The notes beneath the pieces were generated by a model, which was not told the origin of the DNA, made no database searches, and saw only the letters and a program-made list of their open reading frames with translations. Positions 1-44,000 of a DNA stretch of 64,000 nt are shown in pieces. Source of the stretch: a phage. The number at the start of each line of letters is the position of its first letter. Within the stretch, counting starts at the first letter, position 1. A program made the translations under genes and the position numbers. The DNA lies in the sequence record PV805638.1; one strand, written 5' to 3'.

Positions 1-87
1 TGACTGGGGCTACACCCTTACACTCAACCATCCCCCCCGGTATGTTGACCCTGTAGCCACTACCCTACCCCACCTTACACGTTACAC

Positions 88-100
88 GTTGCTCCGCAAC
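88..100 (+). promoter_or_regulatory. vRNAP-type hairpin early promoter candidate (5-bp stem, 3-nt loop; top strand GTTGC-TCC-GCAAC)
   Basis: Perfect 5-bp inverted repeat with 3-nt loop; template-strand reading GCGGAGC puts G at loop centre and G three positions into the stem, as I recall for N4 vRNAP promoters; 44 nt upstream of first ORF; same core at 767 and 5108. Confidence 0.55.
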
Positions 101-143
101 CTATGGACATGTCGTCCTATCATCAACTATTGGAGCTATCATC

Positions 144-467
144 ATGACTACTACCGCTACTGTACGTATGACCGCAGGAACTCTGCTGGGTACTGTTAAC
201 TCTGCTGCTACTACTGTTGCAGATTCATTCGGTGCTGCTACTAAAGCAGTTGGTATGCTTAATTCTTACGTAGCTACTATGGCAAAGAAACAAGCCATTC
301 GTACTAAATTAGAAATGCATACTTTCGAAAACAAATTAGCTGAAGAAACAGCTATGAACGAGACTATGCGTAAGAAAAGTATCGAAGAATTCTGCAAAGA
401 CCCAGAAAACGCTCGTATCTACAACGCAGAATATTCAAGAATAATTGACATCCTGTCTAAAGACTAA
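144..467 (+). CDS. hypothetical early protein
   Basis: ORF 107 aa, GGAG RBS upstream, first gene after hairpin promoter. Confidence 0.6.
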   Translation: MTTTATVRMTAGTLLGTVNSAATTVADSFGAATKAVGMLNSYVATMAKKQAIRTKLEMHTFENKLAEETAMNETMRKKSIEEFCKDPENARIYNAEYSRIIDILSKD

Positions 468-470
468 ATC

Positions 471-497
471 AATAGGAGGCTCTTCGAGCCTCCTATT
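471..497 (+). other. perfect 12-bp stem / 3-nt loop hairpin (AATAGGAGGCTC-TTC-GAGCCTCCTATT), no U-tract
   Basis: Perfect inverted repeat read directly, immediately after stop of ORF 144..467; not followed by T-run so not a classical intrinsic terminator. Confidence 0.5.
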
Positions 498-556
498 AAG
501 GGCATTAGATAGATAGATAGTCAGTTCTGTATAAAAAGATAGGAGAGATACCTACT

Positions 557-703
557 ATGAGCAAACTAAAAAACGCATTCATGCTGATTGTCAGTGTCCT
601 TGCACTTGTTGCTATGGTTTCCGTATACATTGGAAAACCTCTGGTAAACACTGACTATGGTCATGGTCAGAAAGTAAAATCCATCCTGCTAATGGATAAG
701 TAA
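557..703 (+). CDS. small hydrophobic protein (48 aa, one predicted TM helix)
   Basis: ATG with AGGAGAG RBS 8 nt upstream; hydrophobic core LIVSVLALVAMVSVYI; below the ORF-track length cutoff. Confidence 0.4.
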   Translation: MSKLKNAFMLIVSVLALVAMVSVYIGKPLVNTDYGHGQKVKSILLMDK

Positions 704-766
704 AATGTCCTTGAATCTAAATCACCGTAAGAAACTCTGGATATCTTACATACCCTAAAAGACAAC

Positions 767-779
767 GACGCTCCGCGTC
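767..779 (+). promoter_or_regulatory. vRNAP-type hairpin early promoter candidate (GACGC-TCC-GCGTC)
   Basis: Same GCTCCGC core and 5-bp/3-nt geometry as 88..100; upstream of ORF 888..1271. Confidence 0.55.
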
Positions 780-887
780 TTATGGATGATGTAAATGCAT
801 CCACTAATCATTGAAATTTTATCCTTTTGTTTGGGTGTTCTCACCGACGAGTTCACCCGTCAATCACATAAATCTGGAGAGTACAAA

Positions 888-1271
888 ATGTCTATTCAAA
901 AATTCACTTTCGGTCAATCTAACGCTGCTGCTACTTCTACTGCTAAAACTGATAAACCAAAAGCTCAGTTCTGGCTGAACATTGGTTATGTAGCTAATGA
1001 AGGCTCTGATGATGAGAAATTCATCTCGCTGCCTACTGGTATTCCACTGGATACTCAGGAACCACTGCCAACTAACAGCAGCAATGCTGACTTCCGTGCT
1101 ATGCGTTGTGCACAGAACGATTTGTTAGAACAGTTAATCGAATATGCTCAGAACCTGAAACCAGGTGAAGAAGGCATCATTAACCTGCAAGTTCAACTTC
1201 GTCGTGTGAAAGCAGAGGCTGCTGACATCCCAGCAGACGAGAATAAATATGCTCGTAAACTGACTTTCTAA
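888..1271 (+). CDS. hypothetical early protein (127 aa; ORF track begins at 795 but the RBS-supported ATG is 888)
   Basis: GGAGAG RBS 7 nt before ATG 888; followed by intrinsic terminator. Confidence 0.55.
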
Positions 1272-1281
1272 TCAACCACTG

Positions 1282-1309
1282 GACTCCCTTCGGGGAGTCT
1301 TTTATTTTT
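1282..1309 (+). terminator. rho-independent terminator
   Basis: GGACTCCC-TTCG-GGGAGTC hairpin followed by TTTTATTTTT. Confidence 0.7.
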
Positions 1310-1414
1310 AACTCAGCGATAAACTAAGTTTAACTTTTAGGGGCTTTTCGACGAAGAGTCACTAAAACTTAAACGTAAACAGAAGCAGATAACTTAGAGT
1401 AAGGAGTAATCAAG

Positions 1415-1714
1415 ATGCGTACACTATGTAACCGTTATAATCCAACCGGACTGATTAACATCATGGCCTTATATGGTAGCAAAATGACTTATGGTGCTCG
1501 TTGGCAAGTGTCTGTAGAAGACAAGAATGGCAAATGTCATGACCACTACTTCGTAGCTAAGCCTACTCGTAAACAAATCCGTAAACTTCACAAAGTACGT
1601 AAGCATTACTTACTAAGTAAATGCTACGAATGTGGCAAAAGGATAGAACTAGGTAAAGAATTTACTTTTGATGATCTCAACTATGCTCACAATAACTGCT
1701 TAGGAACTAAATAA
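1415..1714 (+). CDS. hypothetical protein with Cys/His pairs (possible zinc-binding)
   Basis: ORF 99 aa; CHDH ... CYECGKR ... HNNC pattern. Confidence 0.5.
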   Translation: MRTLCNRYNPTGLINIMALYGSKMTYGARWQVSVEDKNGKCHDHYFVAKPTRKQIRKLHKVRKHYLLSKCYECGKRIELGKEFTFDDLNYAHNNCLGTK

Positions 1715-1715
1715 A

Positions 1716-2120
1716 ATGACTACTCATAAAATTGTAAAAAGCTGGACTACTGAAGCTGGTTTATCTGCTGTAATCCTGCTAGTAAATGATGGTTCTCACC
1801 ATTGTGGTTACGTAGCATTGCCTGCTGATTTAGCAGACAAAGACTTTATTAATTATGATCCAGAAGAATCCATTTCTGTTCATGGTGGTGTTACCTATCA
1901 AGATGCACTTCCTCAATTAGAGGATAAAATCGCTATCGGTTTTGATTGTGCTCATCACGGTGACCTCATGAAATGCCCTGAGAAGTACAAAGGTACTCCT
2001 CTGGAAGGACTGCGCATGTATTCAGAAGGTGTATGGCGAGATGAGCAATATTGCACCAATGAGTGTGAGTCTATGGCTAAACAACTAATGGCAATGTTGC
2101 CTAAACAACTAGAAGGATAA
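1716..2120 (+). CDS. hypothetical protein
   Basis: ORF 134 aa, start adjacent to stop of previous gene. Confidence 0.5.
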   Translation: MTTHKIVKSWTTEAGLSAVILLVNDGSHHCGYVALPADLADKDFINYDPEESISVHGGVTYQDALPQLEDKIAIGFDCAHHGDLMKCPEKYKGTPLEGLRMYSEGVWRDEQYCTNECESMAKQLMAMLPKQLEG

Positions 2121-2124
2121 TGCT

Positions 2125-2277
2125 ATGAAGCTACTAGCAGAGATTCTGTGTATTTTATTAATGATACTGCTGGTAGCTGCATTTCCGTGGCTATTAGCCG
2201 TAGGCATTATTATTGGTATGCTCGTAGCCGGAGCGAGTGATGCTCGTGGCAGAGATGAGCCAGGTGGAGATGTGTAA
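2125..2277 (+). CDS. small membrane protein (50 aa)
   Basis: ATG 2125; strongly hydrophobic LLAEILCILLMILLVAAFPWLLAVGIIIGMLVA; below ORF-track cutoff. Confidence 0.4.
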   Translation: MKLLAEILCILLMILLVAAFPWLLAVGIIIGMLVAGASDARGRDEPGGDV

Positions 2278-2606
2278 ACACTGCCAGAAGAGTATGTACG
2301 GGGGAACCAGTGATATTCACTAACATTGAGGATGCCATTGAAGAATGTATCTTCCGTAGATATCACACTGGAGTACAGAAACGACACTATGGTGTTGTGC
2401 AACTCAATGGCTATCAAATGGCTGTAAGAATTGTACGTAACAATAAACCTTTTAACTTTATGTGGAGTACTAAACATGCGTAAGTCATTAATCATGGGAA
2501 CCAAAGCTGACGTACAAAAGATGAAAGAGCGTCTGGCTGCTAAGCAACAGGCATCTGAATCAGTACGTAAGATTGTTACCTTCAATCATCCGTGCATCAA
2601 ATAGTA

Positions 2607-2645
2607 AGGAGTCCTCCAATAGGAGGCTCCTATTTTTTATTTTTG
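2607..2645 (+). terminator. rho-independent terminator
   Basis: GGAG(T)CCTCC-AATA-GGAGGCTCC hairpin with one bulge followed by TATTTTTTATTTTT. Confidence 0.65.
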
Positions 2646-2681
2646 AATAGTTAAATATGTATTTAAATAGGAGAAAGAACC

Positions 2682-2990
2682 TTGAATGAAATAGTATGCA
2701 TACTTCCACACTTAGCTAAAGTAGCTGATAGGAATATACGGATACATTTACCCTTCCCATTAAGTAACCCATTCACTCGTAATGAAAGAACCACAGTAGA
2801 GGATATAGAGGTAGCTTATGAAGCTTACCTTCGTAATCGTCTTATTAGTGGTGACAAATTAATTACAGCAGAGATGGAAAGGATTGCTGGCTTTGTCACA
2901 GATAGTACAAAGAAACCTGTTGGTTTAATTGGTACTGAATCTGATGTTAACGTTATTCGTAAAATATTAATGGAGGCATTAAGCCAATGA
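2682..2990 (+). CDS. hypothetical protein (TTG start)
   Basis: ORF 102 aa; AGGAGA RBS upstream; stop overlaps next ATG (ATGATG). Confidence 0.5.
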   Translation: MNEIVCILPHLAKVADRNIRIHLPFPLSNPFTRNERTTVEDIEVAYEAYLRNRLISGDKLITAEMERIAGFVTDSTKKPVGLIGTESDVNVIRKILMEALSQ

Positions 2991-3208
2991 TGTACTCAAA
3001 CGATTATGGTATATGCCCAGTCTGTAAGAAAGGACGTGGAGTTGCCAATCATAAGCGTTGTAGTCGTATATTGCAGAAGCAACGGAACCAGGAAGAATGG
3101 GCTAAGGTGCTGGAAAATCAGCATAAAGAAGAGAATCAACAGATGGCTGTTAGGGCATCTACTCAACGTATTCGCCGTATTAACTATATACAGGGGTATC
3201 AGAAATGA
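2987..3208 (+). CDS. hypothetical protein with CPVCKK motif
   Basis: ORF 73 aa; coupled ATGA junctions on both sides. Confidence 0.5.
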   Translation: MMYSNDYGICPVCKKGRGVANHKRCSRILQKQRNQEEWAKVLENQHKEENQQMAVRASTQRIRRINYIQGYQK

Positions 3209-3564
3209 AACTGATTGTAGCTGGTGGACGTGACTTCACTGACACCAATCGTATGATTATTGAATTACAAAAGCTAGTGGAATCTGGTGAAATAATTGAT
3301 TCACCTGAACTTGTATGTGGTATGGCTAGAGGAGCAGACATTACAGCATACAATCTCTGGAAAGGAGCAGGAATGATAATACATGAATTTCCTGCTGACT
3401 GGGACAGACTAGGTAAGCGTGCAGGTTATGTACGTAATACCGAAATGGCTAATTTCGCAGATACTCTTGTAGCATTCTGGGATGGTAAGTCAAAAGGAAC
3501 CAAGCACATGATTGATACCATGACCCGGTTCAATAATAAGAAAGTAATAGTGGTGAGGTACTAA
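3205..3564 (+). CDS. DUF2493 (SLOG-family, DprA/LOG-like Rossmann) protein
   Basis: VAGGRDF ... GMARGAD ... EFPADWDRLGKRAGYVRN ... FWDGKSKGT matches the DUF2493 pattern from memory. Confidence 0.6.
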   Translation: MKLIVAGGRDFTDTNRMIIELQKLVESGEIIDSPELVCGMARGADITAYNLWKGAGMIIHEFPADWDRLGKRAGYVRNTEMANFADTLVAFWDGKSKGTKHMIDTMTRFNNKKVIVVRY

Positions 3565-3822
3565 GTGATTATTACATTCCCTGCAACTAAATCATTTAAC
3601 TATATGGGACAAACTATTGAAGTCCCATTATGGGTTAAATATGTAGCCTTATTACCTCGACCACAGAAGAGTAAAAATGCCTCACTAATTGGATTTAGTA
3701 GAAAGCCTAAGCTGACTGAAAACTGTATTTGGAAGTCCAGTGGCAGACAAGAGGAAATTGGTTTTTGTGACTACGTACCTCAACCGAATACAGTATATCT
3801 AACCCTGGAGAAAGTAGAGTGA
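3565..3822 (+). CDS. hypothetical protein (GTG start)
   Basis: ORF 85 aa, GTG immediately after previous stop. Confidence 0.45.
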   Translation: MIITFPATKSFNYMGQTIEVPLWVKYVALLPRPQKSKNASLIGFSRKPKLTENCIWKSSGRQEEIGFCDYVPQPNTVYLTLEKVE

Positions 3823-4133
3823 ATAACATTGTAGTAGTACATGATAATACATTTACTGATGTCGATAAGATGATGCGTAATATTGATTACGTATCTCAGA
3901 CTAGTAAAGCATTCAACGAAGAGTTCACTATCTATTGTGAACCAGAATCACCACTGGTTTCTGTATTAAAAGAAGCAGGTCTACCCTTCTCTACAGAGAA
4001 CTTCCCGGAGGAGCCAGAGTATATGATTACATTCATATATGACTTACATGATGGCTCTCCTGCCAGTGAACTAGCTATGAACCAGTGGAGTAGTAAACGT
4101 CCTGTATATGCTTTCCAGGTACTCAAACCATGA
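3819..4133 (+). CDS. hypothetical protein (GTG start)
   Basis: ORF 104 aa, GTGA overlap with upstream stop. Confidence 0.45.
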   Translation: MNNIVVVHDNTFTDVDKMMRNIDYVSQTSKAFNEEFTIYCEPESPLVSVLKEAGLPFSTENFPEEPEYMITFIYDLHDGSPASELAMNQWSSKRPVYAFQVLKP

Positions 4134-4372
4134 TCTATGAAGAATATTATGTATTCAAAAAGGGAGATGATTTTATAGCTATGCCTGATAATTACAGGGG
4201 TTGGCATACAACTCCTGTATTAAAGGAAGCATTTTCCGTACCTAACCTGGAAGAGGTTAATAAAGTAATGAACGGGGTAATGCTAACAAGAGGTATGGCT
4301 TACAAAATAGACGCATTAGAAGGAGCTTCCGTATGCAAAGTAACTACATCCATTGAGGTAGTTAAACCGTGA
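4130..4372 (+). CDS. hypothetical protein
   Basis: ORF 80 aa, ATGA overlap. Confidence 0.45.
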   Translation: MIYEEYYVFKKGDDFIAMPDNYRGWHTTPVLKEAFSVPNLEEVNKVMNGVMLTRGMAYKIDALEGASVCKVTTSIEVVKP

Positions 4373-4749
4373 AAACTATCTCATTAGGTGATAACACCAA
4401 TGCTTTGATGGGTGTATCCGCACGTCCAATTACCATTGTTAATAAACATCACGGTAAATCCGGTGAGTATATTGGGCGTGGCTCACCGTTAGGCAATCCA
4501 TTCGTCATTGGTAAACATGGAACCAGAGAGCAAGTAATTGCTAAGTATAAGGTCTGGCTACAAGAACAGATTGATAAAGGCAATCCAGTTGTACTGGATG
4601 AACTCAATCGTCTTGGTAATAAAGCCATTGATGAAAAAGGTCTGGCCTTACAGTGCTTCTGTTATCCAAAACCATGTCATGGTGAGGTTATTAAAGAGAA
4701 GCTAGTAAAGGCTATGTATAACTACTTTGTAGAAAATCCAAAAGGGTAA
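4369..4749 (+). CDS. DUF4326-family protein
   Basis: GRGSPLGNPF ... LQCFCYPKPCHGEVI matches the DUF4326 signature from memory. Confidence 0.6.
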   Translation: MKTISLGDNTNALMGVSARPITIVNKHHGKSGEYIGRGSPLGNPFVIGKHGTREQVIAKYKVWLQEQIDKGNPVVLDELNRLGNKAIDEKGLALQCFCYPKPCHGEVIKEKLVKAMYNYFVENPKG

Positions 4750-4752
4750 CTA

Positions 4753-5103
4753 ATGAAAGAGATATTCGTATTTACTACCAACATATTAGGTCAACATACC
4801 AATGCTGCTGCCAAGTTAGCTTATAAGAAGCATGGTGCTCGCTGGGGTATGGCCTACGGTCATTATGGTAATAGCTTTGCCATTCCAGTAAGGGATGGCA
4901 ATGGTAACCGAATTAAAGAGGGTGCTATCTATGGCTTCGTTGAAGGCTTTATTTCCTATGCATCTACTAATCCACAGTGGGATTTCAAAGTAATGGGAGA
5001 TGACTTTCTGGACCCATACCTGTTCAATAATGTTACTGGCAATGTACTGTTACCAGAAGCATGGCGTAAACACTTAGGTGATGCTTACAACTACTGGTCA
5101 TAA
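4753..5103 (+). CDS. hypothetical protein (possible Rossmann-like fold)
   Basis: ORF 116 aa; FVFTTN...G...AA motif; family not recognised. Confidence 0.5.
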   Translation: MKEIFVFTTNILGQHTNAAAKLAYKKHGARWGMAYGHYGNSFAIPVRDGNGNRIKEGAIYGFVEGFISYASTNPQWDFKVMGDDFLDPYLFNNVTGNVLLPEAWRKHLGDAYNYWS

Positions 5104-5107
5104 GAAG

Positions 5108-5120
5108 GGTGCTCCGCACC
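5108..5120 (+). promoter_or_regulatory. vRNAP-type hairpin early promoter candidate (GGTGC-TCC-GCACC)
   Basis: Third copy of the GCTCCGC 5-bp/3-nt hairpin, just after the stop of ORF 4753..5103. Confidence 0.5.
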
Positions 5121-5135
5121 TTAAGGAAGTAATCA

Positions 5136-5365
5136 TGGCAGTATCCATTCAGGAAATCATTGTTAAGAGGCACAAGAGAAAATGGGAAAGCTATTACAAG
5201 CTAAAAGAAGTAATTAATGCTGCTTACCTTAGTAAAACAGGTCATGCCAAGATTGAGCTAAATAGTGCATGGCCTTGGAGACATAACATCTATACAGATA
5301 ATCTAATCCTGTTCTATAGCTATGGAAATGAGCATAAGGGTAGCTGTCTAGTTGTAATAATGTGA
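5136..5365 (+). CDS. hypothetical protein (76 aa)
   Basis: ATG 5136 with AAGGAAG RBS downstream of hairpin 5108..5120; ORF-track start 5078 lies inside the previous gene. Confidence 0.45.
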
Positions 5366-5387
5366 TTAACTAATTGGAGAATATGCG

Positions 5388-6206
5388 ATGTACTCATCTA
5401 TCGAACATCAGAAGCAGCTTGAAGTCCTATTCAATAAAAATCAATTACTGCCTCGCATGAGGAAGGAATTCGAGGACTCCAAAGAAATTGACTTTAAGGC
5501 ATTCGCTGCCTATTTAGAAATTGATTATAAGCTGCTCATTGATGCAATGGTGCAGATTGCCCTACATAAACGTGCTGACATCCAGACTATGATTGGCTCT
5601 CTTATGAGTCACTCAGATGATGCTCAGTATATCGCTGACTGTCTGTATAAGATGGCAGAGAATGACTGCTTCAACTATGACCCTACCATCGACAAGTTCG
5701 GTGTTATCTATGAGATTAGTGAAGATGTCCAGATGGAACTGGAAGCATTCCAGTATCCGTTACCTATCGTAAGTGCTCCTAATCCTGTCAGATCTAACAG
5801 GGATACTGGTTACTACCAGACTAGGGGAAGCATTATCCTCAAAAAGAACCATCATGAGATGGATGTCTGCCTTGATCACATCAACCGTATGAACAATCAA
5901 CGCCTCTGTATTAACTGGGATGTTGCTAACTATGTAAAAGATTCTCGTCCTAACATGGATAAACCCAAAGAGGGTGAAACCCGTCAGGAATATGAGAAAC
6001 GTGTTAAAGCCTTTGAGAAGTACAGTCGTACTGCTAAGGAAGTAATGGAGTTAGTGACTCAAGAAGGGAATAACTTCTCACTAGGCCACAAATACGACAA
6101 ACGTGGGCGTACCTACGCTCAGGGCTATCACATTAACTATCAGGGAACCAGCTACAACAAAGCTGTTCTGGAGTTCGCTGATAAGGAGCTGGTAAACGAT
6201 GATTAA
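5388..6206 (+). CDS. phage RNA polymerase II small subunit (T7-like RNAP N-terminal half, N4 RNAP1-like)
   Basis: 272 aa; YDKRGRTYAQG resembles the T7-RNAP D-x-x-GR motif; immediately upstream of a gene carrying motifs A/B/C. Confidence 0.6.
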   Translation: MYSSIEHQKQLEVLFNKNQLLPRMRKEFEDSKEIDFKAFAAYLEIDYKLLIDAMVQIALHKRADIQTMIGSLMSHSDDAQYIADCLYKMAENDCFNYDPTIDKFGVIYEISEDVQMELEAFQYPLPIVSAPNPVRSNRDTGYYQTRGSIILKKNHHEMDVCLDHINRMNNQRLCINWDVANYVKDSRPNMDKPKEGETRQEYEKRVKAFEKYSRTAKEVMELVTQEGNNFSLGHKYDKRGRTYAQGYHINYQGTSYNKAVLEFADKELVNDD

Positions 6207-6359
6207 TAATCGTGCAGTAGAAGACTTCTATGCTCATAGAGAGTTGGTACTGAAACGTATCAATGAAGCAATGAAACGTGAAGCAGAAGCTAAAGCTAAA
6301 CGTAACCGTAAATAAATCCAAATGCGAGCCAAGTGGCTCAAGACGCTAAGGAATACAAA

Positions 6360-6791
6360 ATGCAACTGTTAACTGCCCGTGAATACCTGAAAGTAGATAT
6401 CGCTAACAACTATGGCTTAGACAAGAAGACATGGGATGAGCGTATTAGCTGGTTCGATGAGAATGAAGCTAACCTGCTTAATCTGGTAGATGAAGCTGAA
6501 GAATCTGCATTGTTCTATGCTGGTGTAAACGCATGGAAAGATATGAAAGCCGGTAAGCCTATCGGTTATGCTGTAGCTCTGGATGCTACATCATCCGGCT
6601 TACAGCTACTGGCTTGCCTGACTGGTGACCGTTCTGCTGCTGAACTGTGTAACGTAGTTAACTACATGGGGGAGAATGGTAAGCCATTACGTCGTGATGC
6701 TTATACAGTTATCTATCACAAGATGCTGGACATCCTTGGTGAAGCATCTCGTATTAAACGTAGTGATACTAAGCAGGCCGTTAACCTATAA
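6360..6791 (+). CDS. phage RNA polymerase II large subunit (RNAP2), 5' exon / N-terminal fragment
   Basis: DATSSGLQLLACLTGD resembles T7 RNAP motif A (DGSCSGIQH); ORF stops inside the motif-B region (SDTKQAVNL*). Confidence 0.6.
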   Translation: MQLLTAREYLKVDIANNYGLDKKTWDERISWFDENEANLLNLVDEAEESALFYAGVNAWKDMKAGKPIGYAVALDATSSGLQLLACLTGDRSAAELCNVVNYMGENGKPLRRDAYTVIYHKMLDILGEASRIKRSDTKQAVNL

Positions 6792-7596
6792 GTCATGGCG
6801 GCCTTTAAACCGGGTGAACTCATGGAACATCCCTAGTGGACAATCATGAGCCAAGTTGGTAACGTAGAAAGCTCAATAAGGAGCATTCTATGTCAGAATT
6901 CAAAACGTGCAGTCGATGTAAAGAATTACTTCCTATCGAAGTATTCCCAGAGACTAAAAAAGCAATCACAGGACTCAAGACTAATTACGAGAATCGTTGC
7001 AGACCTTGCAAGGCTGCTGCTGCTCGTGAATGGCGTAAAAATAATCCCGGTTACACTGGAACTGGGATTCTTAAGGCAATACCGGAAGAGCATCGTAAAT
7101 GGTATTCAGCAGTCTCACTTAGACTGAGAGATGCAAAGAGCAGATGTAAAAAGCTCGGTAAGCCTATGCCTGATTGCACAGTAGAGTACTTATTTGAAAT
7201 CCTTAAATCACAGGAATTCAAATGTGCTTTAACTGGTGCAACCTTAGTAATTGAGTCGGGACATCCCTTGTGTCTATCATTAGACCAGATAGAGCCAAGC
7301 AAGGGATATAGTATTGATAATGTTCAATGGTTAGCTTGGTGTGTAAACCGAGCAAAGGGTGACCTTTCTACCAATGACTTTATTGATATGTGTGATGCTG
7401 TTTTGAATAACCAAAAGGTGCAGAGACTATCGAAAAGCAGCGTAAGCTGAACTTAGTAGAGTAGGCCCAAGTGGGTCGAAGCGCCCGGCTAGACTAATAG
7501 TCTAGATGATATAGTCCGAACTCACTGGTAACAGTGAGATGCAGGTAAAGCTGCTGGGGAAGATTAACGACCTTCCTTGAACATAATGTATGACTG
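6790..7596 (+). mobile_element. putative group I intron (about 0.8 kb) with HNH homing endonuclease ORF, interrupting RNAP2
   Basis: RNAP2 homology stops at 6791 and resumes at about 7590 in motif B; no RBS before the 3' part; GNRA-capped hairpin 7521..7538 and other hairpins; boundaries are approximate (+/-10 nt). Confidence 0.45.
6890..7450 (+). CDS. HNH homing endonuclease
   Basis: 186 aa; strong AAGGAG RBS; N-terminal Cys cluster and SLDQIEPSKGYSIDNVQWLAWCVNRAKGD HNH-type motif. Confidence 0.7.
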   Translation: MSEFKTCSRCKELLPIEVFPETKKAITGLKTNYENRCRPCKAAAAREWRKNNPGYTGTGILKAIPEEHRKWYSAVSLRLRDAKSRCKKLGKPMPDCTVEYLFEILKSQEFKCALTGATLVIESGHPLCLSLDQIEPSKGYSIDNVQWLAWCVNRAKGDLSTNDFIDMCDAVLNNQKVQRLSKSSVS

Positions 7597-8384
7597 CATT
7601 CTATGGTTCAGAAGCCAAGCCTAAAGAAGTATTCGGTGAAGGTATTCGTCTCAAGACTTTTGAGAATGTAATGGAAACAGTTGCTAGTGGACCTTGGGCA
7701 CTGAACAAGTTCTTACTGCAATGTGGTAACCCGGATGCTAGCCGTTACGTATGGGTACTGCCTGACAATTTCCATGCTGTCATTAAGGTCATGGTTCCAG
7801 AGGTACAGACCGTTAACTTCTTAGGTAAGCCATTCGACATCACTCGTATGGTTCAGGGTACTGAAGATAAGACTCGTATGCTCTCTGCTAACATCACCCA
7901 CTCTATTGATGGAATGGTGGTACGTGAGATGCTGCGTCGCTGTAACTTCGACATGAACCAGGTGAACTATATTAAGTCCCTCTGTGAAGGGACCAGTGAG
8001 TATATGCTGGGTACTAGCGAAAACTACGACATGGTTAGTCAACTGTGGCATAACTATGAGAAATCAGGATTCCTGTCTACCCGTATCTTTGATTATCTGG
8101 ATTCTGACTCAATTAAACTGGTTGATACAGATGTAATCATGGCTATGCTTAATACCATGCCTAAGAAACCATTCCCTGTAATGACCGTACATGACTGCTT
8201 CCGTTGTCATCCTAACTATGGCAATGACTTGCGTCGTCAGTACAATCAGATTCTGTCTGACATTGCTAAGAGTGACCTACTGGGCTTCATCCTGTCTCAG
8301 GTACTGGGGCAAGAGTTCTCTGCTGGTAAGCTGGATGACAGCCTCTGGCAGGACATCCTTGAAACGGATTATGCATTAAGTTAA
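7590..8384 (+). CDS. phage RNA polymerase II large subunit (RNAP2), 3' exon / C-terminal fragment
   Basis: AFYGSEAKPKE resembles T7 motif B (LAYGSKEFG); TVHDCFRCHP resembles motif C (HDSFGT); exon 1 + exon 2 is about 410 aa. Confidence 0.6.
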   Translation: MTAFYGSEAKPKEVFGEGIRLKTFENVMETVASGPWALNKFLLQCGNPDASRYVWVLPDNFHAVIKVMVPEVQTVNFLGKPFDITRMVQGTEDKTRMLSANITHSIDGMVVREMLRRCNFDMNQVNYIKSLCEGTSEYMLGTSENYDMVSQLWHNYEKSGFLSTRIFDYLDSDSIKLVDTDVIMAMLNTMPKKPFPVMTVHDCFRCHPNYGNDLRRQYNQILSDIAKSDLLGFILSQVLGQEFSAGKLDDSLWQDILETDYALS

Positions 8385-8392
8385 TAAACTGG

Positions 8393-8427
8393 CCTCATAC
8401 CTTCGGGTATGGGGCTTTTATTTTTTG
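8393..8427 (+). terminator. rho-independent terminator
   Basis: 10-bp GC-rich hairpin followed by TTTTATTTTTT. Confidence 0.7.
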
Positions 8428-8443
8428 CTTGGAGGTAGTCAAC

Positions 8444-8626
8444 ATGACAGACATCTATGATGTTATTACTAAAACCGTACTGATAGTTTTATCTGCTATT
8501 GTGGTATTCACTATAGCCAATATTCATAAAACCAAGTTTTCCTATTGCTACTATGGGGCATATTCTGCCGGATGTTTTGTATTAGCCGGTTGGATAGCTT
8601 ACTGGATTTACCGCATCAACAACTAG
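8444..8626 (+). CDS. small membrane protein
   Basis: GGAGG RBS before ATG 8444; two hydrophobic segments. Confidence 0.5.
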   Translation: MTDIYDVITKTVLIVLSAIVVFTIANIHKTKFSYCYYGAYSAGCFVLAGWIAYWIYRINN

Positions 8627-8655
8627 CCACCCTCATGGGTGGCTTTCTTTTTTAT
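8626..8655 (+). terminator. rho-independent terminator
   Basis: AGCCACCC-TCAT-GGGTGGCT hairpin followed by TTTCTTTTTT. Confidence 0.65.
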
Positions 8656-8700
8656 CAGCCTTCATAATGATTAGGCATATTTACTCAAGAGGATACATGT

Positions 8701-35043: not shown

Positions 35044-35077
35044 GCAAAGCCCCTCTTTTGAGGGGCTTTCTTATTTT
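35044..35077. terminator. bidirectional intrinsic terminator between convergent gene blocks
   Basis: 9-bp hairpin AAGCCCCTC-TTTT-GAGGGGCTT flanked by A-run and T-run; between + gene end 35034 and - vRNAP stop 35076. Confidence 0.7.
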
Positions 35078-38000
35078 AGTTTACTAAGTTCATCCAAGGG
35101 TTTAGGTTGTGAGCACGAAGCCCCTGACCAAAGCCCCATGAGTAATCCAGACTACCCTTAGCAGCAATACTAAAGATGTTGTCCTGAATAGGTAAGCCAA
35201 CGTTACCAAACATGGTAGGAGTTGGAGCCAGCATCGCCATTGCTGCATGTACTGGGTTATTGCGAATCATGGACACTGCAACCTTAGCTGAACGAATCTT
35301 AAAGTTGTAGAACCACATTAAACCAACGCTTTCCATATACCCACGGAAACGGCCCGGCAGACGGTCATAGTTAATGAACTCTTCGGTTACACGTCCCAGT
35401 GCTTCTTCACGAGTCTTACCTTTACGCTGGGTCAATTCATCATAGATGATTGCTTTAGCGATAAAGTCAGAGTACTCAACCGTCTTCTGGATACCCTGGA
35501 ACAGAGCAGTATCCTTAGTGATAAGTGCATAACGACCAGCAGCACGTACAGACTTAGGTAACTTATCCGCCAGCTTTTCCATGTATTCGTGAAGTTTACC
35601 TTCAGTAATCAGGATGTCATCACGACCAATACCAGCATCTGCAATTGAAGAGAACTCACCAGCTTCTATCAGAGGCCAGATACTCATACGCTTATGGCTA
35701 TCAGTAATGGACTGAATCTCAGCCTTAAGTTTACGAATCTGGTTCGGGTTAGTAGCTGCACGTAATTCTGCTTCTGCATCTACCTGACGTAAACGAGATT
35801 TAAGGTACTGGTTAATCTCAGCAGTCTTCCGTGGAATGCTCTTAGCAATGTTCTTAACCGGTACACCACGAGCAACCATCTGGTAAAGGTTAGCCAAAAA
35901 GTTAACAACAGGTACGACTACTGACTTAACTACAATCAGAGTCTTAGCATCTTTAACTAAGTTTTGAACCAGGTTCTCACCACCCATTAAGTACTTATAG
36001 GCACGGTTACCGGCTAAACCCAGAATAGCTTTTTTAAAGGTATTAAGCGTTTCCGGGGACCAACGAGAATTACCAGACCAAGCATCACCAATCGAAGCTG
36101 CACGATAGCCAAGTGCATCATTCAGCATGTCCCGACGTACCCACAGTTCACCCTCACCAAACAGTTTTTCTGCTTTCCGTCGAGTTTCGCTGTTCATCAG
36201 CTTAAGAGCATCAGCAGTTACTGGGTCCAGTTTAGAACCAAAAAGGTTCACGTACTGGGACTTATTAGCAGCAGACATCTTAATGTCTTCCTTGTACATG
36301 CTATACAGGTTCTCAATCAGCATATCGTTGAAACGCTGAGCCTTAGCTTCTTCCACCTGACGACCACGCCATACACCAATTGCACGGGCAAGATGATTTT
36401 CACCTTCAATATGCTTCAGCATATTAGGGTTAATTGATTCCTCATAAGCAACCACATCACCTTTAGCATTATATACGGGCAATAGTGGTTCATTACCACG
36501 TTCACCACGAGCTAGTGCTTTAGCGATACGGTCTACAGAAGGCTTGTCAGTAATACGACCAGCTACCATGGAACCCATCGTAAAGCCTGTACCGAGGTCT
36601 ACACCACCAGCAGTATTACGAACGTTCTGTAGAATACCTTGTGAGAACGGAGCCTGTGCCTGTACTGGGGCAAAGTAGTAGCTACGTGCCAGACCTCGGT
36701 TAGCAGAGCTACCTTGATAAGTACTCAGACGTACATAGGACTTCTCTATCAAATCACCAAACTGGCTATCTTCAGCAACAACCAGACTAACACCCTGTTT
36801 AGTCTCACTAGGGATATACCCTTTGTACTGGTTCAGGGTTGCACGCATATTAGATTTGGCTTTAGCCATTTCATCTTTACGCTGCCCAACCAGGTAAGAA
36901 GTAGCAAAGTCCATTCCCTCAACTTCTGTCTGAGCCAGTGAAGATAACATCTCACGGTCGGACTTGTTCATTGCTTCCAGTGCATACAGGGTAATAAGTT
37001 TATCCAGTTGAGCTACATCTACAATAGAGCGAGTAGTCTTACGTTCACCTAACATACGAGAGATTGCAGTAGCATTCCGCAGCAAGTTTTTACCGACTGT
37101 GCCATTAATCATGTACTGAGCCAGTTGCTTAGATTTACGGTTAATCAGAGGCCAGTTACGACCAGCTTGTTTCTGCAAATCTGCTTCCAGCTTATTCACT
37201 TCACGGTCAACAATCTTCTGGTCAGATAGCAGGTCACGGATTTCAGCCAGAGACATGGTGTCACGCAGGACAGCTAAGTCAGTTTTACCCATACCAGTGT
37301 ACATTGCTTTCCACTCATCCTTAGTCAGCTTACGGCTGAACTTAGATGCGATAGTGGTAGGCAGGTGTTCACGGAACTGCTGACGGTCAGCCTGCACCTG
37401 TGCACGAACTGCTTTAATCAAATCGTATACAGAAGCATTACTCTTAGTACGACCGGTTAAGTCATTAACCAGGTCATGGAAAGGTTGCCATACTTTACCC
37501 TGGTTCATTGCAACCATAACGCCTTCAGCTACGTTTGCACCATTCTTCTCTGTAGCAATAGCAGCCATTAGTTGTGCAGCATGAGCAGCACCCTTAACCA
37601 ATGGATTTTTGGTATTGGCTGCAACTTCACGAGCACTTTCTAAAACACGGGTAGACAGTACATCAATAGAGTCCACCAAATACTGGTTAGCACGGTCAAT
37701 AGCATTACCACTAGGAGTAGCAACGGAATCATAGAATGACTGTGCATTAAGGCTAGTCTGCATGATTGTTTGAGCCAGTGCATCCATACCTTCCTGTACG
37801 TTGGTAGCTTTAGTGTCACCTGCTACACGAGCATTCAGGCTTGCCATTGCAGCAGTACCAATGTTAGTCAGCATTGCATCGACGGTATTCCCAGATTTCT
37901 TATCTGCTTTCATAACAGGAATGTTAGCCAGTACATTACGTACCTCTTCACTTACCATTGCCAGACCAACAAAGGTAGGCAGTATTGAAGAACGACCCTG

Positions 38001-41000
38001 CGCATCAAACTCAATATTGTTAGCACCCATGATGGTATCGAACTTCTGCTGTGCATAGTAACGGTCAGCAGGGTTAGTACTATCTGGGTCAGTCATGAAT
38101 GATTCAACAGTCAGGTTCTTAGTAACGTGTGCATAGTATTCCTGTGCACGAGAAAGAGCAGCCGGACTAATAGCAGCTTCAGTAGCGAGTGCAGCAACAA
38201 TGTTAGTAAAGAGACGCTGCTCCTGCATATTCATAGTGAAGCCATGAGCCTGAACATCACGGGTTACTTTAGTTGCGTGCTTTTTCGCATCAGAGAACTT
38301 ACCTTCACGGATTACTTGCTGTACTGGTTCTGAACCAATGTAGTTAGTAATCAGCTTATCAAATGTCTGTCCTAACTCTTCCAGACGGGTATTGTCACCA
38401 TATGCTTTGTTATGGAACAAGGTAGTATCTTTGGCTACAGCAGCCGTAGGAGCCTGTCCACGCATAACTACTGAAGAGTTAAACAGTAAGCCAGAGAACA
38501 TATCATCTGCATTAGCAGGTGCTTTCTTGCGACCAAATACCAGACGTTTGATTGCTTCATATACTGACTGAACCATGGCTTTCAGTGCAGTGGTCTTCTT
38601 CTGCTTACTAATTAATTCACGGTTAGTTAAGCCCCAAGCCATGTACTCATTCAGTGCAGCAGCTTTAGCCATTGCTGGTTCAATAAAGCCGTTAGACAAG
38701 TGACCATTAATGGTATTAAGTGCATCAGCATATGCTTCACGTACTGCCGGAGATTCATCCATAACATCCAGATTACGGAACTGGTTCATCAAGTCTTCAA
38801 TATTCTGGACTGCTTCATTAGGAGTACCCTCATAGTGAGCCAGTACAGATTCAAAAGTAGAAGCATGTACTAATTCATGAACCAGAGTCTCTAGGGAAGG
38901 GGTAACTAAGTAGATGGTTTTATCATCAAAGTTAGTCCAGCCATACGCATTACCAGCTTCGGCAGCTTCAATATCTTCCGGTGCTGGACGAGTAATGTTC
39001 TTCTCAATAGCATAGGCATCCAGTTGAGCAGGAGTACCGTAAACAACTTTGTAGTCTTTAGCAGCAAGGGATTTCTGTATCTCTTTCAATACTGCTTGCT
39101 GTTCTGGAGACATCTCTTTAGCCAGCTTGGTAATAGCAGTATTAGACAATAGACGTACACCAGACTTAAGTACACGACCAACTTGTTCCATTGCTGGCAC
39201 TTCTTTAACAGGTGCTTCTTTAGTAGGTACTTCTTTCACTGGATCTGCTTTAGCAGCACGTACTGCATCACGACGCTTATTTAATTCAGCATCAAACAGT
39301 TCGTTCAGCTTAGCTACTTGCTGGTCTACAGTCAGTCCCTCAAGAGAAATTTTACCGTTGTTCACATAAGGAGCACCTACAGCAGCCATCTGGTCAACAG
39401 TGGTCTGTACCTGGTTCATTACTTTGTGGCGAATATCCACACTTAAAGCAATGTTACGCAGGTTACGCTCAATAAGGTTAACACCTGAATTCTTAATCAT
39501 ATCAATCTTATACTGCCTGTCTCCCTCAACGCGACTGATATGAGAAAGCTGTTCAAAATCTAAAGCGGAACGGGCAATGTCATCAATTGTCTTATCTGAC
39601 AACTTATCAAAGTCTACATTCTTCAAGAACTCAGAGAAGGATTCATATACAGCCTTGATAGGATTCCCCTGCCAGGAAGTGTATACAGCCTCGTTTGCTT
39701 TACGACTTGCATCAGTGATGTCACTAATACCAATGTTCATACCATCAAAGATTTTCAGGGTATTCTTCGGAGCACCTTTCATAGTAGAAAGGGTCTGCAT
39801 CATCATGCCATCACCAGTACCGATGGTCATAAATGGAATACCTGCAACACCTGCTTGTGAAGGAGCATAGATGCTCATTGGCACACGCATACGGTCATCT
39901 AAGTTGGTAGCCAGTACTTGGTTAGCAACGTCAGTACTCTCACTGCCAGCAAGGTAGAAAGTCTGTGAGCCAGTCTCAATCATTGGAGCCAATGGAGATA
40001 ATGATTCCTGGATTTCATTCAGTTCTTTCTGTGTTAAGAAATCACCCTTCTTCCAGGTTGGGTCTTTTTCTTTTTCTGCTAGCTTAGCCTGTACTGCTTG
40101 CTGGAACATATCCTGCAATACCAGAGACTGAATCTGAGTAGCCTTCTGCAAGTTCTCAGTAGAGTACATCAGACCTTCACCAACAGTATTACGGATACCG
40201 GTACGCATTGGCTCAACGAACAAATGGAGCATGTTCTCTTGTAAGTTCTTCAGAGCATTACCGGATACGGTAAATTTCTGAGGGTCTAACTTACCAGTCA
40301 GAGCACCATCTACTTCCTTAATAAATAACTTACCTTTACGCTTAGCTGGAATCTTACCGGTCAGTGCTTCCATAGAAGTAAGGAAGGTATCCAGCATAGC
40401 CTGAGCATCTGCCTCAGACGCAGCCTCCTTACCAAACATTGCCATAGCCGGGGAAATGCTAGGGTCAGCAGCACGTGCTTGCAGAACGTCGCTGAAGCGT
40501 TCGTAGATGGTGTCAGTAATTGCACTGACCATCTTGCCAGCAATACCACGAGCACCAGAACCATAGATGGTAATGGTCAGAGGGTTCTTAGCGATACCAC
40601 GTTTCAGGTCCAGAGTACCATCTTCATTCAGGTTAAAGTCTTTAATGAACAGGTCCATTAACTTCTGGAGATGATTTATCTGGTTCATAACTGGAACGTT
40701 GTTACGGTAAGTAGTACGTAACTCATTCAGTGCTTGTTGCAGACCATTGGTAGATGCTTCATACAAGTCAACATTATCGTCGATAGAACAGTGTTCGTTC
40801 ATCGTTTTACCAGCGCGACCGAAGAACAGTCCACCTTTAGCAGTGTTCTTAATCCAGTCTGGGGTGAACTTACCACCAGTCATTAATACCATTGCGTTGA
40901 TTGGGCCGTTGGTTACACCATCAGCTTCAACGTACAGAGGGGTAGTAAAATTAGCACGGTCATCACTGTTCAGGTAACGGGCATATTCCATCAGAGCCAT

Positions 41001-44000
41001 GAGAGCTACGAAGGATTTGTTATCACCCAGGGAAGACTTCAGAATATCTACTGCATCAGTAGGTAAGTAGCCAGACTTATCAAACTCGACCATCATATCA
41101 ACAGCAGGTTTCAGATTACCTTCCAGAGCTTTGGTCAGATTTTCAGACATAGCTTCACGGGACATTTTATGTACCTTGATGCCCAATGCCTGAGCCAGAC
41201 CTAGCTGGAAGTCAGAGAACGCTTGGCTGTTTTCATTACTTAAGTCGATAGTAGAGAAGGTTGGCAAAATTGCTTCACGAACCAGCTTACTGGATTGTGG
41301 GTTATTTTTACCAAGCATCTGCATACGACCTACACGGGTCATGTTATAGCCATAGTGAATGGGAGTATCCAAACCATTCTCTTGTTCTTTTAGCTGATTA
41401 ATTAAACCGAACAAGGAATCATATGCCATAGATACTGATAAGTTCTTACCTTCCAGAGATTTGGCAGTGTTTTCATTCAGCAAATCAGGATTAAGAGAAC
41501 CAGCACCCATCAGTTCCAGAATGCCGTCACGCCCCAATGCTTCATAGAAGTTAACCATCGGCATGTGTACACGGAACTCGGTAGCCTGTTCAGCTTTCAG
41601 AGCAGCTTTCTGTTCAGGGGTATTCTTAACAGCAGGGTTACGTAACTGAGTCTGAGCCACAGAAGGAATGTCATCACCAAAGTACATTTTCTCTTCTGGT
41701 TCTAAGAGGACAGCTTCCTCAATAGCAGTAGGGAATTTGTTAATGGCATCATTGTCATCCAGTTTCTCAATAGTATACAGACCAATGGTCTTATTGGAGT
41801 CTGGGTCAATCTCAGACACATCCAGCATAGACTCTTTAACTTCACCCATCTCAATGAGGGAAGACAGAATCTCTGTAGCCATTGCCATTGGGATACCTTT
41901 TGTATAACCCAGTGGTGCATTAGGATTACGATTCAAACCCCAATAAGATTCAATCTTCTGAGCCAGTGAGTTAGTAGCTTCGACCAGAGTCTGGGCATTC
42001 TCGAACTCAGCCAGAATACCTTCTGGTAACAGAGATGCATCTACACCAGTAATAGCAGCTACGTCTTTCATGTCTTTAATGGCAGCATTCTGTGTAGCAG
42101 TCAGTCGCCATTGCAGACCAGCAAGTACAGCAGTCTCTAACAACTGGTCATTAAACTTAAAGGTGTCACCATCACGTTCAACGATATTCAGCAGTTTGCC
42201 ACCTACCCAACGGTTAGCTTCAGTACCTTCTGCAAAACGCTTACCAACGTTCTTGTTAGCAAGGAACTTAGCCAGTCGTTCAGACAAAGTAGTCTTCAGA
42301 GTTTCCCCAAAGTCCATCAAGTCTTGATAACGTTCTAACACATCACCTGTAAGAGCGTTATTTTCTTTTTGAGTGAACGCTTCAAAGCGAGCAGCAGAAG
42401 ACAGTGCTTGCTTAATATCAGCCAAAGGGGATTCTGAACCAATGGTACGGGACTTAGGTTCTTCCGGTAAGGTAAACGCCTTCAGGAACTGGTTCGGTGT
42501 CTTCTCATTGTTATAGACAGGGAACACTGTTTCCATTTCAGAAAGAGGTTTGCCACCTACTGTATAATCTGCTTTCAATTGAGCCAGTGATACTTCATCT
42601 TCCTCCGCGTTGTTAGTGTTAAGACCAGAGGTATCTACACCAACCAGAATATGTGCATTATTGGCTTCAACGAAAGACTGAACAGTATTGAATTGTTCGG
42701 CAGTCAGTTTCTGATTATCGAACAGCTGTAAGGACACAAACGGGTGTTCACTGCCTTTATAGAACATAGAGCGAATAGCACCTGTATCCAGAGACATATC
42801 ACGATAACCATCATGACCAAATACATCGGACAGGCTGATATGGTCGCCATTAGAACCAACCACAGTACCATCAGCAAACAGCCATGGACTTTCTCTATGG
42901 TCACCATACTTATTAAGAGTTTCCTGTGAAATAGTATTTTCTTTCACATAGGCATCTCTTTCAGATTCGGTAGGTTGCTCGATGGTATCCTCATTAGTGG
43001 GGGTAGCATCATCTACAACCGGGCTAGTCTTTTCAGACTTAGGTACTTTCTCTTCCTGTGCAGGTGTAACTTCTGGCTGGGAGAATGTATTACGTACATA
43101 GTTCATAAAATCATTACGTGCTTGAGAAGGAGAAGACCATACTTCCCGTGTGCTACGTAAACTAAAGATTCGACCTTCAGGAGTCATTACGTAAGGTACA
43201 TTTGTTTCACCGTACTTAAATGAAGTGAGTACATCTGACTTACCAGTAACAGTGCTTTCCCCTGGAATGACAATAGTCTTACCACCAGTAGAAGGAGCAG
43301 CACGAACACCCTCAATATCCTTACCAAGAGAAATATACTCTTTACCGTTGTAATCAAAGTACTGACCTATCTGCATATAGGTAGCTTGTTGCTTACCAGT
43401 AAACTCAGCAGTTTTCATCTCCGGGCCGTTAGGTACAGACGTACTTTCAGACTTAGGCTTAGATACTTTCTCTGGTTCTGACTTAGACTCTACAGTGTTA
43501 GGAGCAGTTTTATTGTTTACCACTGGTTTAGCTTTAGACTGTACAGTAGTGACTGGTTCCTGTGTTTTTACAGGTGTTTCATTAACCTGATTCACTGGTT
43601 CATTAGCCTGTTGAGACTGAGTGGCATTAAGACCACCTTGACGGAACTCTTTAACTACCTGGGCAGCTGGCTTGTTCAGACGTGAATCCAACGAGGTAAC
43701 TTTCACATGAGAAACATTAAGCTCCGGGTAAGCCGTAGCAAGTGCATTAGCAATATCAGCTACGGTCTTAGCTTCCAGTGCTACTTGCTGGGCAAACTTA
43801 ACAGACTTGGTATCGTAAGGATTGACACCGAGGCCAGTACGACTACGTACCCATTCACGAGTAGGTGTGAGAGCCTGATAATGAACAGACTTATTCTTAT
43901 CCGCATTCCCAGAAATCAGATGCTCATTCAACGCTCCGACCTTATTCTGCATGTGCTGGGCGAACTTCATAAAATCGCTCAGATAAGCGGAAGCCAAATC

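Follow-up and report, generated by a model that had tools for sequence, protein, structure and literature searches.

Putative N4-type early promoter hairpins at the left genome end of a G7C-like coliphage

The early promoters P1, P2 and P3 of phage N4, recognised by the virion RNA polymerase gp50, were reportedly described by Haynes and Rothman-Denes in 1985, and are said to have been treated also by Glucksmann et al. in 1992, Davydova et al. in 2007 and Gleghorn et al. in 2008. According to the published rules, an N4 promoter consists of a GC-rich heptamer centred at -11 with inverted repeats on either side, and the virion RNA polymerase (vRNAP) recognises template -11A/G, -10G, -8G and +1C (PMC4496689, 2015 review); its residues R904 and D901 contact -8G and -9C of the template stem, and transcription starts 11 nt downstream of the loop centre (PMC4496689). 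In a 2026 cryo-EM paper, the P2 template oligonucleotide carries GAAGC-GGA-GCTTC, then AAAA and the CC at which transcription starts (PMC13492108). Gyrase-dependent, supercoil-driven extrusion of the hairpins and activation by SSB have been established for N4 alone (PMC4496689). In the N4 genome, the hairpins GTTGC-TTC-GCAAC at 90, GAAGC-TCC-GCTTC at 559 and GCTGC-TCC-GCAGC at 4548 are located upstream of gp1, gp2 and gp15; transcription of gp15 and gp16, which encode RNAPII subunits, is driven by P3. Among other phages, putative promoters P1-P4 have been published for Klebsiella phage KP8 (PMC6950046, Table 1), and early hairpin promoters with nine early starts were mapped by ONT-cappable-seq in Pseudomonas phage LUZ7 (PMC9163698). 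The LUZ7 promoters resemble the sites described below in their short stem (at least 4 bp), conserved 3-nt loop, G start at a fixed distance downstream and injected vRNAP; they differ in core and spacing, with starts 13-14 nt from the hairpin centre (PMC9163698).

The window analysed here, a 64,000-nt stretch of sequence record PV805638.1, opens at G7C position 1 and, in its first 6 kb, matches phage G7C at 95% identity across 81% of the length; it represents the left end of a genome of the genus Gamaleyavirus (G7C-like, Schitoviridae). A sequence-only reading of this DNA had pointed out three perfect hairpins with an identical 7-nt core near this end, and all three were confirmed in the sequence (P1-P3; Table 1). 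They are intergenic, lie on the + strand (the early-gene strand) within the first 5.1 kb, and combine a 5-bp stem with a 3-nt loop, within the 5-7 bp stem and 3-nt loop of the published promoters; the stems stop at 5 bp, where the flanking bases are C/C, C/T and G/T. At each of the three sites, the template strand has GC-GGA-GC (in full, GTTGC-GGA-GCAAC at P1), which agrees with PMC4496689 and PMC13492108 and bears out the N4 vRNAP promoter geometry to which the same reading had compared the sites. The core places G at template position -8 and C at -9 in each case (3/3 sites), and the loops follow the published rule of a purine at -11, G at -10 and a G:C closing pair (template 5'-G-(G/A)-A-3'). 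The arrangement of N4 is repeated: three 5/3 hairpins, all on the early-gene strand at the left genome end, with the non-template core GC-TCC-GC. Window P1 is a single loop base apart from N4 P1 (TCC instead of TTC), and the outer three stem bases are GAC at P2 (GAA in N4) and GGT at P3 (GCT in N4).

Table 1. Hairpins, predicted starts, genes and other elements of the window (positions are those of the window).
Feature	Position	Strand	Remarks
P1-type vRNAP promoter hairpin (putative), GTTGC-TCC-GCAAC	88..100	+	loop centre (-11) at 94
Predicted P1 transcription start, +1 G	105	+	CTAT/GGACAT; from the N4 rule
gp1 homologue, first early gene after P1	144..467	+	65% identity to N4 gp1 (tblastn); G7C annotation
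Stem-loop after gp1, 12-bp stem, 3-nt loop	471..497	+	RNA MFE -19.3 kcal/mol, z -3.9
P2-type vRNAP promoter hairpin (putative), GACGC-TCC-GCGTC	767..779	+	loop centre 773
Predicted P2 transcription start, +1 G	784	+	TTAT/GGATGA; from the N4 rule
gp2 homologue, N4 RNAPII cofactor	795..1271	+	70% identity to N4 gp2
Terminator-like hairpin with T-run after gp2 (putative function)	1281..1300	+	MFE -14.1 kcal/mol, z -3.4
P3-type vRNAP promoter hairpin (putative), GGTGC-TCC-GCACC	5108..5120	+	loop centre 5114
Predicted P3 transcription start, +1 G	5125	+	TTAA/GGAAGT; from the N4 rule
Small ORF, 76 aa, between P3 and gp15	5135..5365	+	10-nt leader from predicted start
gp15 homologue, small subunit of N4-type RNAPII	5388..6206	+	66% identity to N4 gp15
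Virion RNA polymerase (vRNAP) gene	35076..46355	-	match to N4 vRNAP structures, E = 0

Very probably, P1-P3 are the early promoters of this G7C-like coliphage (Gamaleyavirus, Schitoviridae), whose own virion-packaged polymerase reads them, and homology supports viewing them as the counterparts of N4 P1, P2 and P3, a correct but ordinary finding. The promoter reading is based on the sequence of the sites, their non-randomness, their positional match to N4, the covariation of their stems, the G at +1, and the presence of a polymerase with the appropriate contact residues.

Taken by itself, the abundance of the core would be compatible with functionless short inverted repeats that arose by chance: when both strands of the 64-kb window were scanned, the GCTCCGC 7-mer was found three times against 2.87 expected, at least three copies occurred in 55 of 100 shuffles, and perfect 5/3 hairpins are common (122 in the window). 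The unusual feature is that all three copies lie inside hairpins, gaining three further perfect base pairs, on the + strand and within the first 5.1 kb. Compared to the three core hairpins observed, 1000 dinucleotide-preserving shuffles yielded a mean of 0.049 per window (951 windows with none, 49 with one), corresponding to a Poisson probability of approximately 2e-5 for three or more. The improbability of this joint event, the clustering on one strand at the left end, the conservation of the positions out to N4, and the covariation of the stems effectively refute a chance origin. None of the 5/3 hairpins in the window besides P1-P3 contains the GCTCCGC core, and the sole other TCC loop among them, at 52049, has an AT stem; the sequence-only reading had asked whether the motif might be common at non-promoter positions, and a window-wide scan for GC-TCC-GC hairpins found it at P1-P3 only. 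No additional vRNAP promoters were detected in the window when the loop was relaxed to T/C combinations or to any loop with GC closing pairs; the other GC-closed hairpins were rejected as promoter candidates, having unrelated loops and intragenic positions, and recurring as coding sequence in relatives.

When 31-nt segments were folded with nearest-neighbour DNA parameters, the P1-P3 hairpins came out as the predicted minimum-energy structure on either strand. The folding energies were unremarkable (-3.2 to -4.7 kcal/mol; z -0.9 to -2.2), and thermodynamic significance was dropped as an argument, these z values being no evidence either way; given such modest energies, the significance of the hairpins derives from motif, position and conservation and not from computed stability. 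A special stability of this loop has been described for N4 (PMC4496689), and standard DNA parameters may be blind to it.

The conservation of the sites was followed across related phages; five loci were obtained from an IMG/VR search with gp1, and annotated phage records were used instead. In 12 Enquatrovirinae sequences (220 kb), every GCTCCGC copy (36/36) was part of a perfect hairpin on the early-gene strand, and the outer three stem pairs covaried, with eight different triplets among the 36 copies. A formal pair count over 24 distinct sites found 100% of cells paired and covariation at three of the five pairs; the 26 double-change cells compare with 6.6 in shuffles, a number reached in 0 of 500 shuffles, and pairing fell to merely 14-46% in slid registers. 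These data also bear on the alternative that P1-P3 are duplex palindromic operators for a dimeric phage or host regulator, each site being a 5 + 5 bp inverted repeat in an intergenic position upstream of a gene. The outer stem bases vary freely as long as they remain complementary; variation that keeps the pairing indicates that a structure is preserved, and not a base-specific operator half-site. Moreover, the central TCC is asymmetric and has one orientation relative to the genes in 36/36 copies, conservation extends to one side only, up to the GG at a fixed distance, and N4 biochemistry identifies the template-strand hairpin as the form recognised by vRNAP (PMC4496689); the operator alternative is accordingly very improbable.

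The promoter reading also finds close parallels in individual relatives. The stems and loops of the G7C hairpins at 89, 1228 and 5221 are those of window P1-P3, the 31-nt P2 site of the window is identical to G7C 1222-1252, and phage KKP 3715 carries the P3 hairpin GGTGC-TCC-GCACC at 5755. The published putative P1 of Klebsiella phage KP8, ACGTTGCTCCGCAACCTATGGA, equals window positions 86-107 (PMC6950046, Table 1). A fourth hairpin occurs between gp1 and gp2 in G7C, KKP 3715, KP8 and one IMG/VR relative, and is missing from the window; the G7C version, at 503, has C instead of G as its predicted +1. GC-TCC-GC hairpins were absent from the early regions of LUZ7, Achromobacter Axy24 and Erwinia Ea9-2.

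At the sequence level, the starts predicted from the N4 rule (Table 1) each consist of G followed by GA, and are separated from the stem by four spacer bases; N4 shows the same four-base spacing and GG start, with TTAT, TTTT and TTTT at -4 to -1 in place of CTAT, TTAT and TTAA in the window. The G at +1 of P1-P3 supplies the required template C. Of 37 sites compared across relatives, 36 have G at +1 and all have G at +2. No mapping of transcript 5' ends and no in vitro transcription was found in the literature for Gamaleyavirus. The predicted P1 and P2 transcripts would open with stem-loops, GGAC-N5-GTCC and GGATG-N6-9-CATCC, with loops that vary and stems that stay unchanged all the way from N4 to this phage; their RNA folding energies are no better than those of shuffles (z +0.4 and -0.5), and the stem-loops could equally reflect constraints of initiation and coding.

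Each hairpin precedes a + strand ORF, as the sequence-only reading had stated, and the genes concerned are homologues of those that follow the N4 hairpins. P1 is followed by the ATG at 144, P2 by the gp2 start at ATG 795 or the in-frame ATG 888 (GGAGAG precedes 888, and the annotators of relatives use both), and P3 by the ATG at 5135 and then gp15. The earlier suggestion of an early transcription unit that begins inside the small-gene cluster needs one correction: such a unit is to be expected there, P3 being the counterpart of N4 P3. In contrast to N4, P2 is placed 300 nt past gp1 with an additional small ORF in between, and the 76-aa ORF is added between P3 and gp15; the latter ORF is not found in G7C or N4, and is present in one IMG/VR relative, while phage E20 has an annotated ORF at the equivalent position. 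The stem-loop behind gp1 is likely an early terminator or processing hairpin; on the + strand it has no U-tract. Sigma-70-like sites are rarer than expected in positions 1-9000 (10 vs. 24.6), consistent with a region that is not read by the host polymerase. A Pfam scan of gp1, gp2, the two small ORFs and the vRNAP insertion identified no family.

This gene context permits an evaluation of P1-P3 as intrinsic terminators, or as RNA stem-loops with a role in processing or stability, acting on the minus strand or else at the 3' end of each upstream + strand transcript. A consensus scan rated 779-767 and 5120-5108 as terminator-like on the minus strand, where each hairpin is followed by a T-rich stretch, and P3 begins only 5 nt past the gp14 stop codon. 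Yet the region contains no credible minus-strand genes, and the annotated genes of the relatives are all on the + strand; P1, 88 nt from the genome end, has no upstream unit that it could terminate. The stems are just 5 bp long, and far stronger terminator-like hairpins exist at 471-497 and 1281-1300. An invariant asymmetric core with GG 11 nt past the loop centre has no role in a terminator and is instead a promoter signature; a terminator or RNA-processing function for P1-P3 therefore appears highly improbable, if slightly less so than the operator function.

The enzyme expected to read the promoters P1-P3 is encoded on the minus strand of the same window (Table 1); codon 7 of the ORF is likely the true start. 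The predicted protein shares 66% identity with N4 vRNAP overall and 70% in the polymerase domain. The catalytic residues D559, Y678 and D951 are conserved, and so are K114, R119, W129, K268, K849, K850, D901 and R904; seven of the eight promoter-contact residues checked are counted as retained, the exception being K267 of the beta-intercalating hairpin, which is N in the window. These matches fit a cognate enzyme with the recognition element for -11, the specificity loop and the beta-intercalating hairpin.

If the phage follows the N4 pattern, the left genome end would be the first part to enter the cell, accompanied by a few vRNAP molecules. Host gyrase would then supercoil the DNA until the short inverted repeats extrude as cruciforms, and host SSB would melt the non-template hairpin while the template hairpin, 5'-NNNGC-GGA-GCNNN-3', stays intact; gyrase- and SSB-dependent extrusion at P1-P3 is suggested by the identical loop and closing pair. 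The vRNAP would bind the template hairpin by contacting specific bases, -11G and -10G in the loop and -9C and -8G in the upper stem, and, as in N4, would begin RNA synthesis from the template C located 11 nt downstream of the loop centre. The resulting + strand transcripts, predicted to begin with GGA, would lead from P1 into gp1, from P2 into gp2, and from P3 into the small ORF followed by the genes for the RNAPII subunits. A reading that emphasizes local variation is possible but rather unlikely; here the promoter set would be unfixed within the genus (three vs. four sites), P3 would have gained the 76-aa ORF, and the 5' stem-loops of the P1 and P2 transcripts could be functional, in RNA stability or in translational control of gp2.

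Identical sequences are already on record as putative promoters of a relative, Klebsiella phage KP8; in this sense the sites contain nothing new, and the result raises no new question. The annotation of the genome benefits, since it gains three defined early transcription units with probable 5' ends. Across genera, the sites provide a clean natural covariation set, in which the outer three pairs are free and the inner GC-NNN-GC is fixed. The hairpin-promoter system, defined in N4 by biochemistry and structure, appears to be carried essentially unchanged in the G7C-like coliphages, in its core, spacing, start nucleotide, gene positions and polymerase contact residues.

The first 6 kb of the window align with Escherichia phage vB_EcoP_G7C at 95% identity over 81% of their length, beginning at G7C position 1, and match approximately 85 further records of N4-like coliphages; the window therefore represents the left end of a Gamaleyavirus genome (Schitoviridae, Enquatrovirinae). 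Three perfect hairpins with a common 7-nt core, GCTCCGC, had been proposed as N4-type promoters in a sequence-only reading, and all three were recovered with exactly the sequences reported there; we name them P1, P2, and P3 after their N4 counterparts. The heptamer occurs three times against 2.87 expected on both strands of the 64-kb window; its copy number alone is at chance level, and its context is the non-random part. All three copies are flanked by three more complementary pairs, giving stems of exactly 5 bp, and all are intergenic, on the plus strand, and within the first 5.1 kb. In 1000 dinucleotide-preserving shuffles, hairpins with this core averaged 0.049 per window with a maximum of one, and the shuffle mean yields P ~2e-5 for three in one window; none of the 119 other perfect hairpins of the window with a 5-bp stem and 3-nt loop carries the core. 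DNA folding gives unexceptional stabilities (z -0.9 to -2.2), which thus provide no evidence either way.

Features of the window, with corresponding hairpins of N4 and other relatives
Feature	Location	Strand	Sequence or basis
P1-type hairpin	88-100	+	GTTGC-TCC-GCAAC, read directly from sequence
P2-type hairpin	767-779	+	GACGC-TCC-GCGTC, read directly from sequence
P3-type hairpin	5108-5120	+	GGTGC-TCC-GCACC, read directly from sequence
gp1 homologue	144-467		tblastn, 65% identity to N4 gp1
gp2 homologue	795/888-1271		tblastn, 70% identity to N4 gp2
gp14 homologue	4753-5103		tblastn, 47% identity to N4 gp14
gp15 homologue	5388-6206		tblastn, 66% identity to N4 gp15
vRNAP ORF (virion RNA polymerase)	35076-46355	-	3759 codons; N4 vRNAP structures matched, E = 0; 66% identity overall
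vRNAP insertion region	42501-43442	-	residues ~972-1285 of the ORF
N4 P1 hairpin	N4 genome 90		GTTGC-TTC-GCAAC, before gp1
N4 P2 hairpin	N4 genome 559		GAAGC-TCC-GCTTC, before gp2
N4 P3 hairpin	N4 genome 4548		GCTGC-TCC-GCAGC, before gp15
Fourth hairpin, G7C (L001)	503-515		
Fourth hairpin, KKP 3715 (L009)	944-956		
Fourth hairpin, relative's locus L005	10752-10764		

The three N4 hairpins are the characterised early promoters of that phage, conserved from -17 to +1 with a GC-rich heptamer centred at -11 between inverted repeats; the N4 vRNAP recognises template -11A/G, -10G, -8G, and +1C in a hairpin with a loop-closing G:C pair and a sheared -10G:-12A pair, and a four-base spacer works as a ruler (PMC4496689). 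The cryo-EM template oligonucleotide for P2 has the sequence ...CC-AAAA-GAAGC-GGA-GCTTC... (PMC13492108). When N4 numbering is applied to the window sites, GCTCCGC occupies -14 to -8 and the stem ends at -5, followed by the spacers CTAT (P1), TTAT (P2), and TTAA (P3); the predicted +1 at 105, 784, and 5125 is a G followed by GA at every site, and therefore provides the required template C. At the sequence level, these positions coincide with the starts that the earlier reading had predicted. The G7C genome has identical hairpin sequences, and window positions 86-107 correspond letter for letter to the putative P1 of Klebsiella phage KP8 (PMC6950046).

The window was compared with early regions from eleven other Enquatrovirinae (G7C, N4, KKP 3715, E20, Bp4, UE-S5a, EC1-UPM, Klebsiella phage JZBo1, and three IMG/VR contigs). 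With the 7-mer core as the sole search criterion, 220 kb (both strands) yielded 36 copies of GCTCCGC; each of them sits in a perfect 5-bp hairpin on the strand of the early genes, and eight different outer stem triplets occur. When pairs were counted across the 24 distinct sites, pairing reached 100% of cells; the inner two pairs never change and each of the outer three covaries, with 26 double-change cells vs. 6.6 in shuffles (0 of 500 as high), and slid registers pair only 14-46%. A G occupies the predicted +1 at 36 of the 37 sites and +2 at every one of them. Chance is excluded as the origin of the hairpins by this covariation beyond shuffles, by the shuffle probability, and by the placement of every core in a hairpin. 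In N4, contacted bases are conserved and the remaining stem bases need pairing only (PMC4496689); judged from the aligned sequences, the conserved core and covarying outer pairs match this rule. Duplex operators are argued against by half-sites that covary freely and by an asymmetric core found in one orientation only. The core is missing from the more distant Schitoviridae Achromobacter Axy24, Erwinia Ea9-2, and Pseudomonas LUZ7, consistent with diverged specificities; LUZ7 has its own, experimentally mapped hairpin promoters (PMC9163698). In some relatives, the interval from gp1 to gp2 contains a fourth GC-TCC-GC hairpin, which the window lacks, and four putative promoters have been published for KP8. 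In G7C, the predicted +1 of the fourth hairpin is C, not G; this hairpin is therefore possibly inactive, or its start lies 1 nt further downstream.

The N4 mechanism is the best explanation of the three hairpins. The left genome end would enter the cell together with the vRNAP; supercoiling would presumably extrude the hairpins, host SSB would remove the non-template hairpin, and the vRNAP would bind the template hairpin and initiate with GTP at a predicted start 11 nt downstream of the loop centre. P1 would serve gp1, P2 gp2, and P3 the RNAPII genes, preceded by a small ORF. The earlier suggestion that the third site begins a transcription unit inside the small-gene cluster holds, and corresponds simply to the P3 arrangement of N4. 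A terminator-like scan flags two of the sites on the minus strand, as terminators or RNA elements might be, but this reading is argued against by the lack of minus-strand genes there, the short stems, the absence of anything upstream of P1, and a GG at fixed distance that serves no purpose in termination.

Aligned to N4 gp50, the window vRNAP keeps K114, R119, and W129 of the -11 recognition element, D901 and R904 of the specificity loop, the promoter-contact residues K849, K850, and K268, and the catalytic residues D559, Y678, and D951; K267, replaced by N, is the only one changed among the promoter-contact residues compared. Relative to N4 gp50, the window enzyme carries an insertion of ~260 aa in the flexible-linker region of gp50, after the N-terminal domain and ahead of the polymerase domain; the latter spans residues ~1255-2360 of the ORF. 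Only 30 phage records contain this insertion; every one is from a phage of Escherichia or Shigella, and those whose classification was looked at are Gamaleyavirus; its full length is common to the window and G7C only, the other records sharing the C-terminal two-thirds, and no Pfam family matches it.

Strong plus-strand stem-loops follow gp1 (471-497; 12-bp stem, 3-nt loop, -19.3 kcal/mol, no U-tract on the plus strand) and gp2 (1281-1300; 8-bp stem, with a U-tract); both probably terminate early transcripts or stabilise their 3' ends, and probably delimit the P1 and P2 units. Within positions 1-9000, sigma-70-like matches are depleted (10 vs. 24.6 +/- 5.0 in shuffles) and terminator-like hairpins enriched (15 vs. 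5.1 +/- 2.1). The start of gp2 is ambiguous: ATG 795 (+) has no Shine-Dalgarno sequence and lies 11 nt beyond the start predicted for P2, whereas the in-frame ATG 888 is preceded by GGAGAG; G7C and N4 are annotated with the long form, Bp4 and EC1-UPM with the short form, and the additional 31 residues of the long form can be aligned with N4 protein sequence. Between P3 and gp15 lies a 76-aa ORF (5135-5365, +), its ATG just 10 nt beyond the start predicted for P3 (GGAAGTAATC-ATG); it has a counterpart in IMG/VR contig UViG_3300045988_012650 (78% identity), phage E20 has an annotated ORF in the same position, and no Pfam match to it was found. G7C and N4, in contrast, lack this ORF, and P3 leads straight to gp15.

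The predicted P1 and P2 transcripts would begin with 5' stem-loops, GGAC-ATGTC-GTCC (105-117, +) and GGATG-ATGTAAATG-CATCC (784-802, +), whose stems are invariant from N4 to the window phage and whose loops vary in sequence and length; their energies are not better than those of shuffles, and coding constraint is an alternative for the P2 element, since the candidate gp2 ATG 795 lies inside it. The left-terminal 140 nt of non-coding sequence (1-143), which include seven consecutive C (32-38) and, directly upstream of P1, repeats of TTACAC(G), are more conserved between N4 and the window than the adjoining gp1 coding sequence, possibly in connection with the genome terminus or with packaging. 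The terminal repeat of G7C contains P1 and gp1 and recurs at the right end (locus L004); the counterpart region falls outside the window. The promoter system itself holds nothing substantially new: the three sites are counterparts of textbook promoters, and the departures from the known system are minor local differences.
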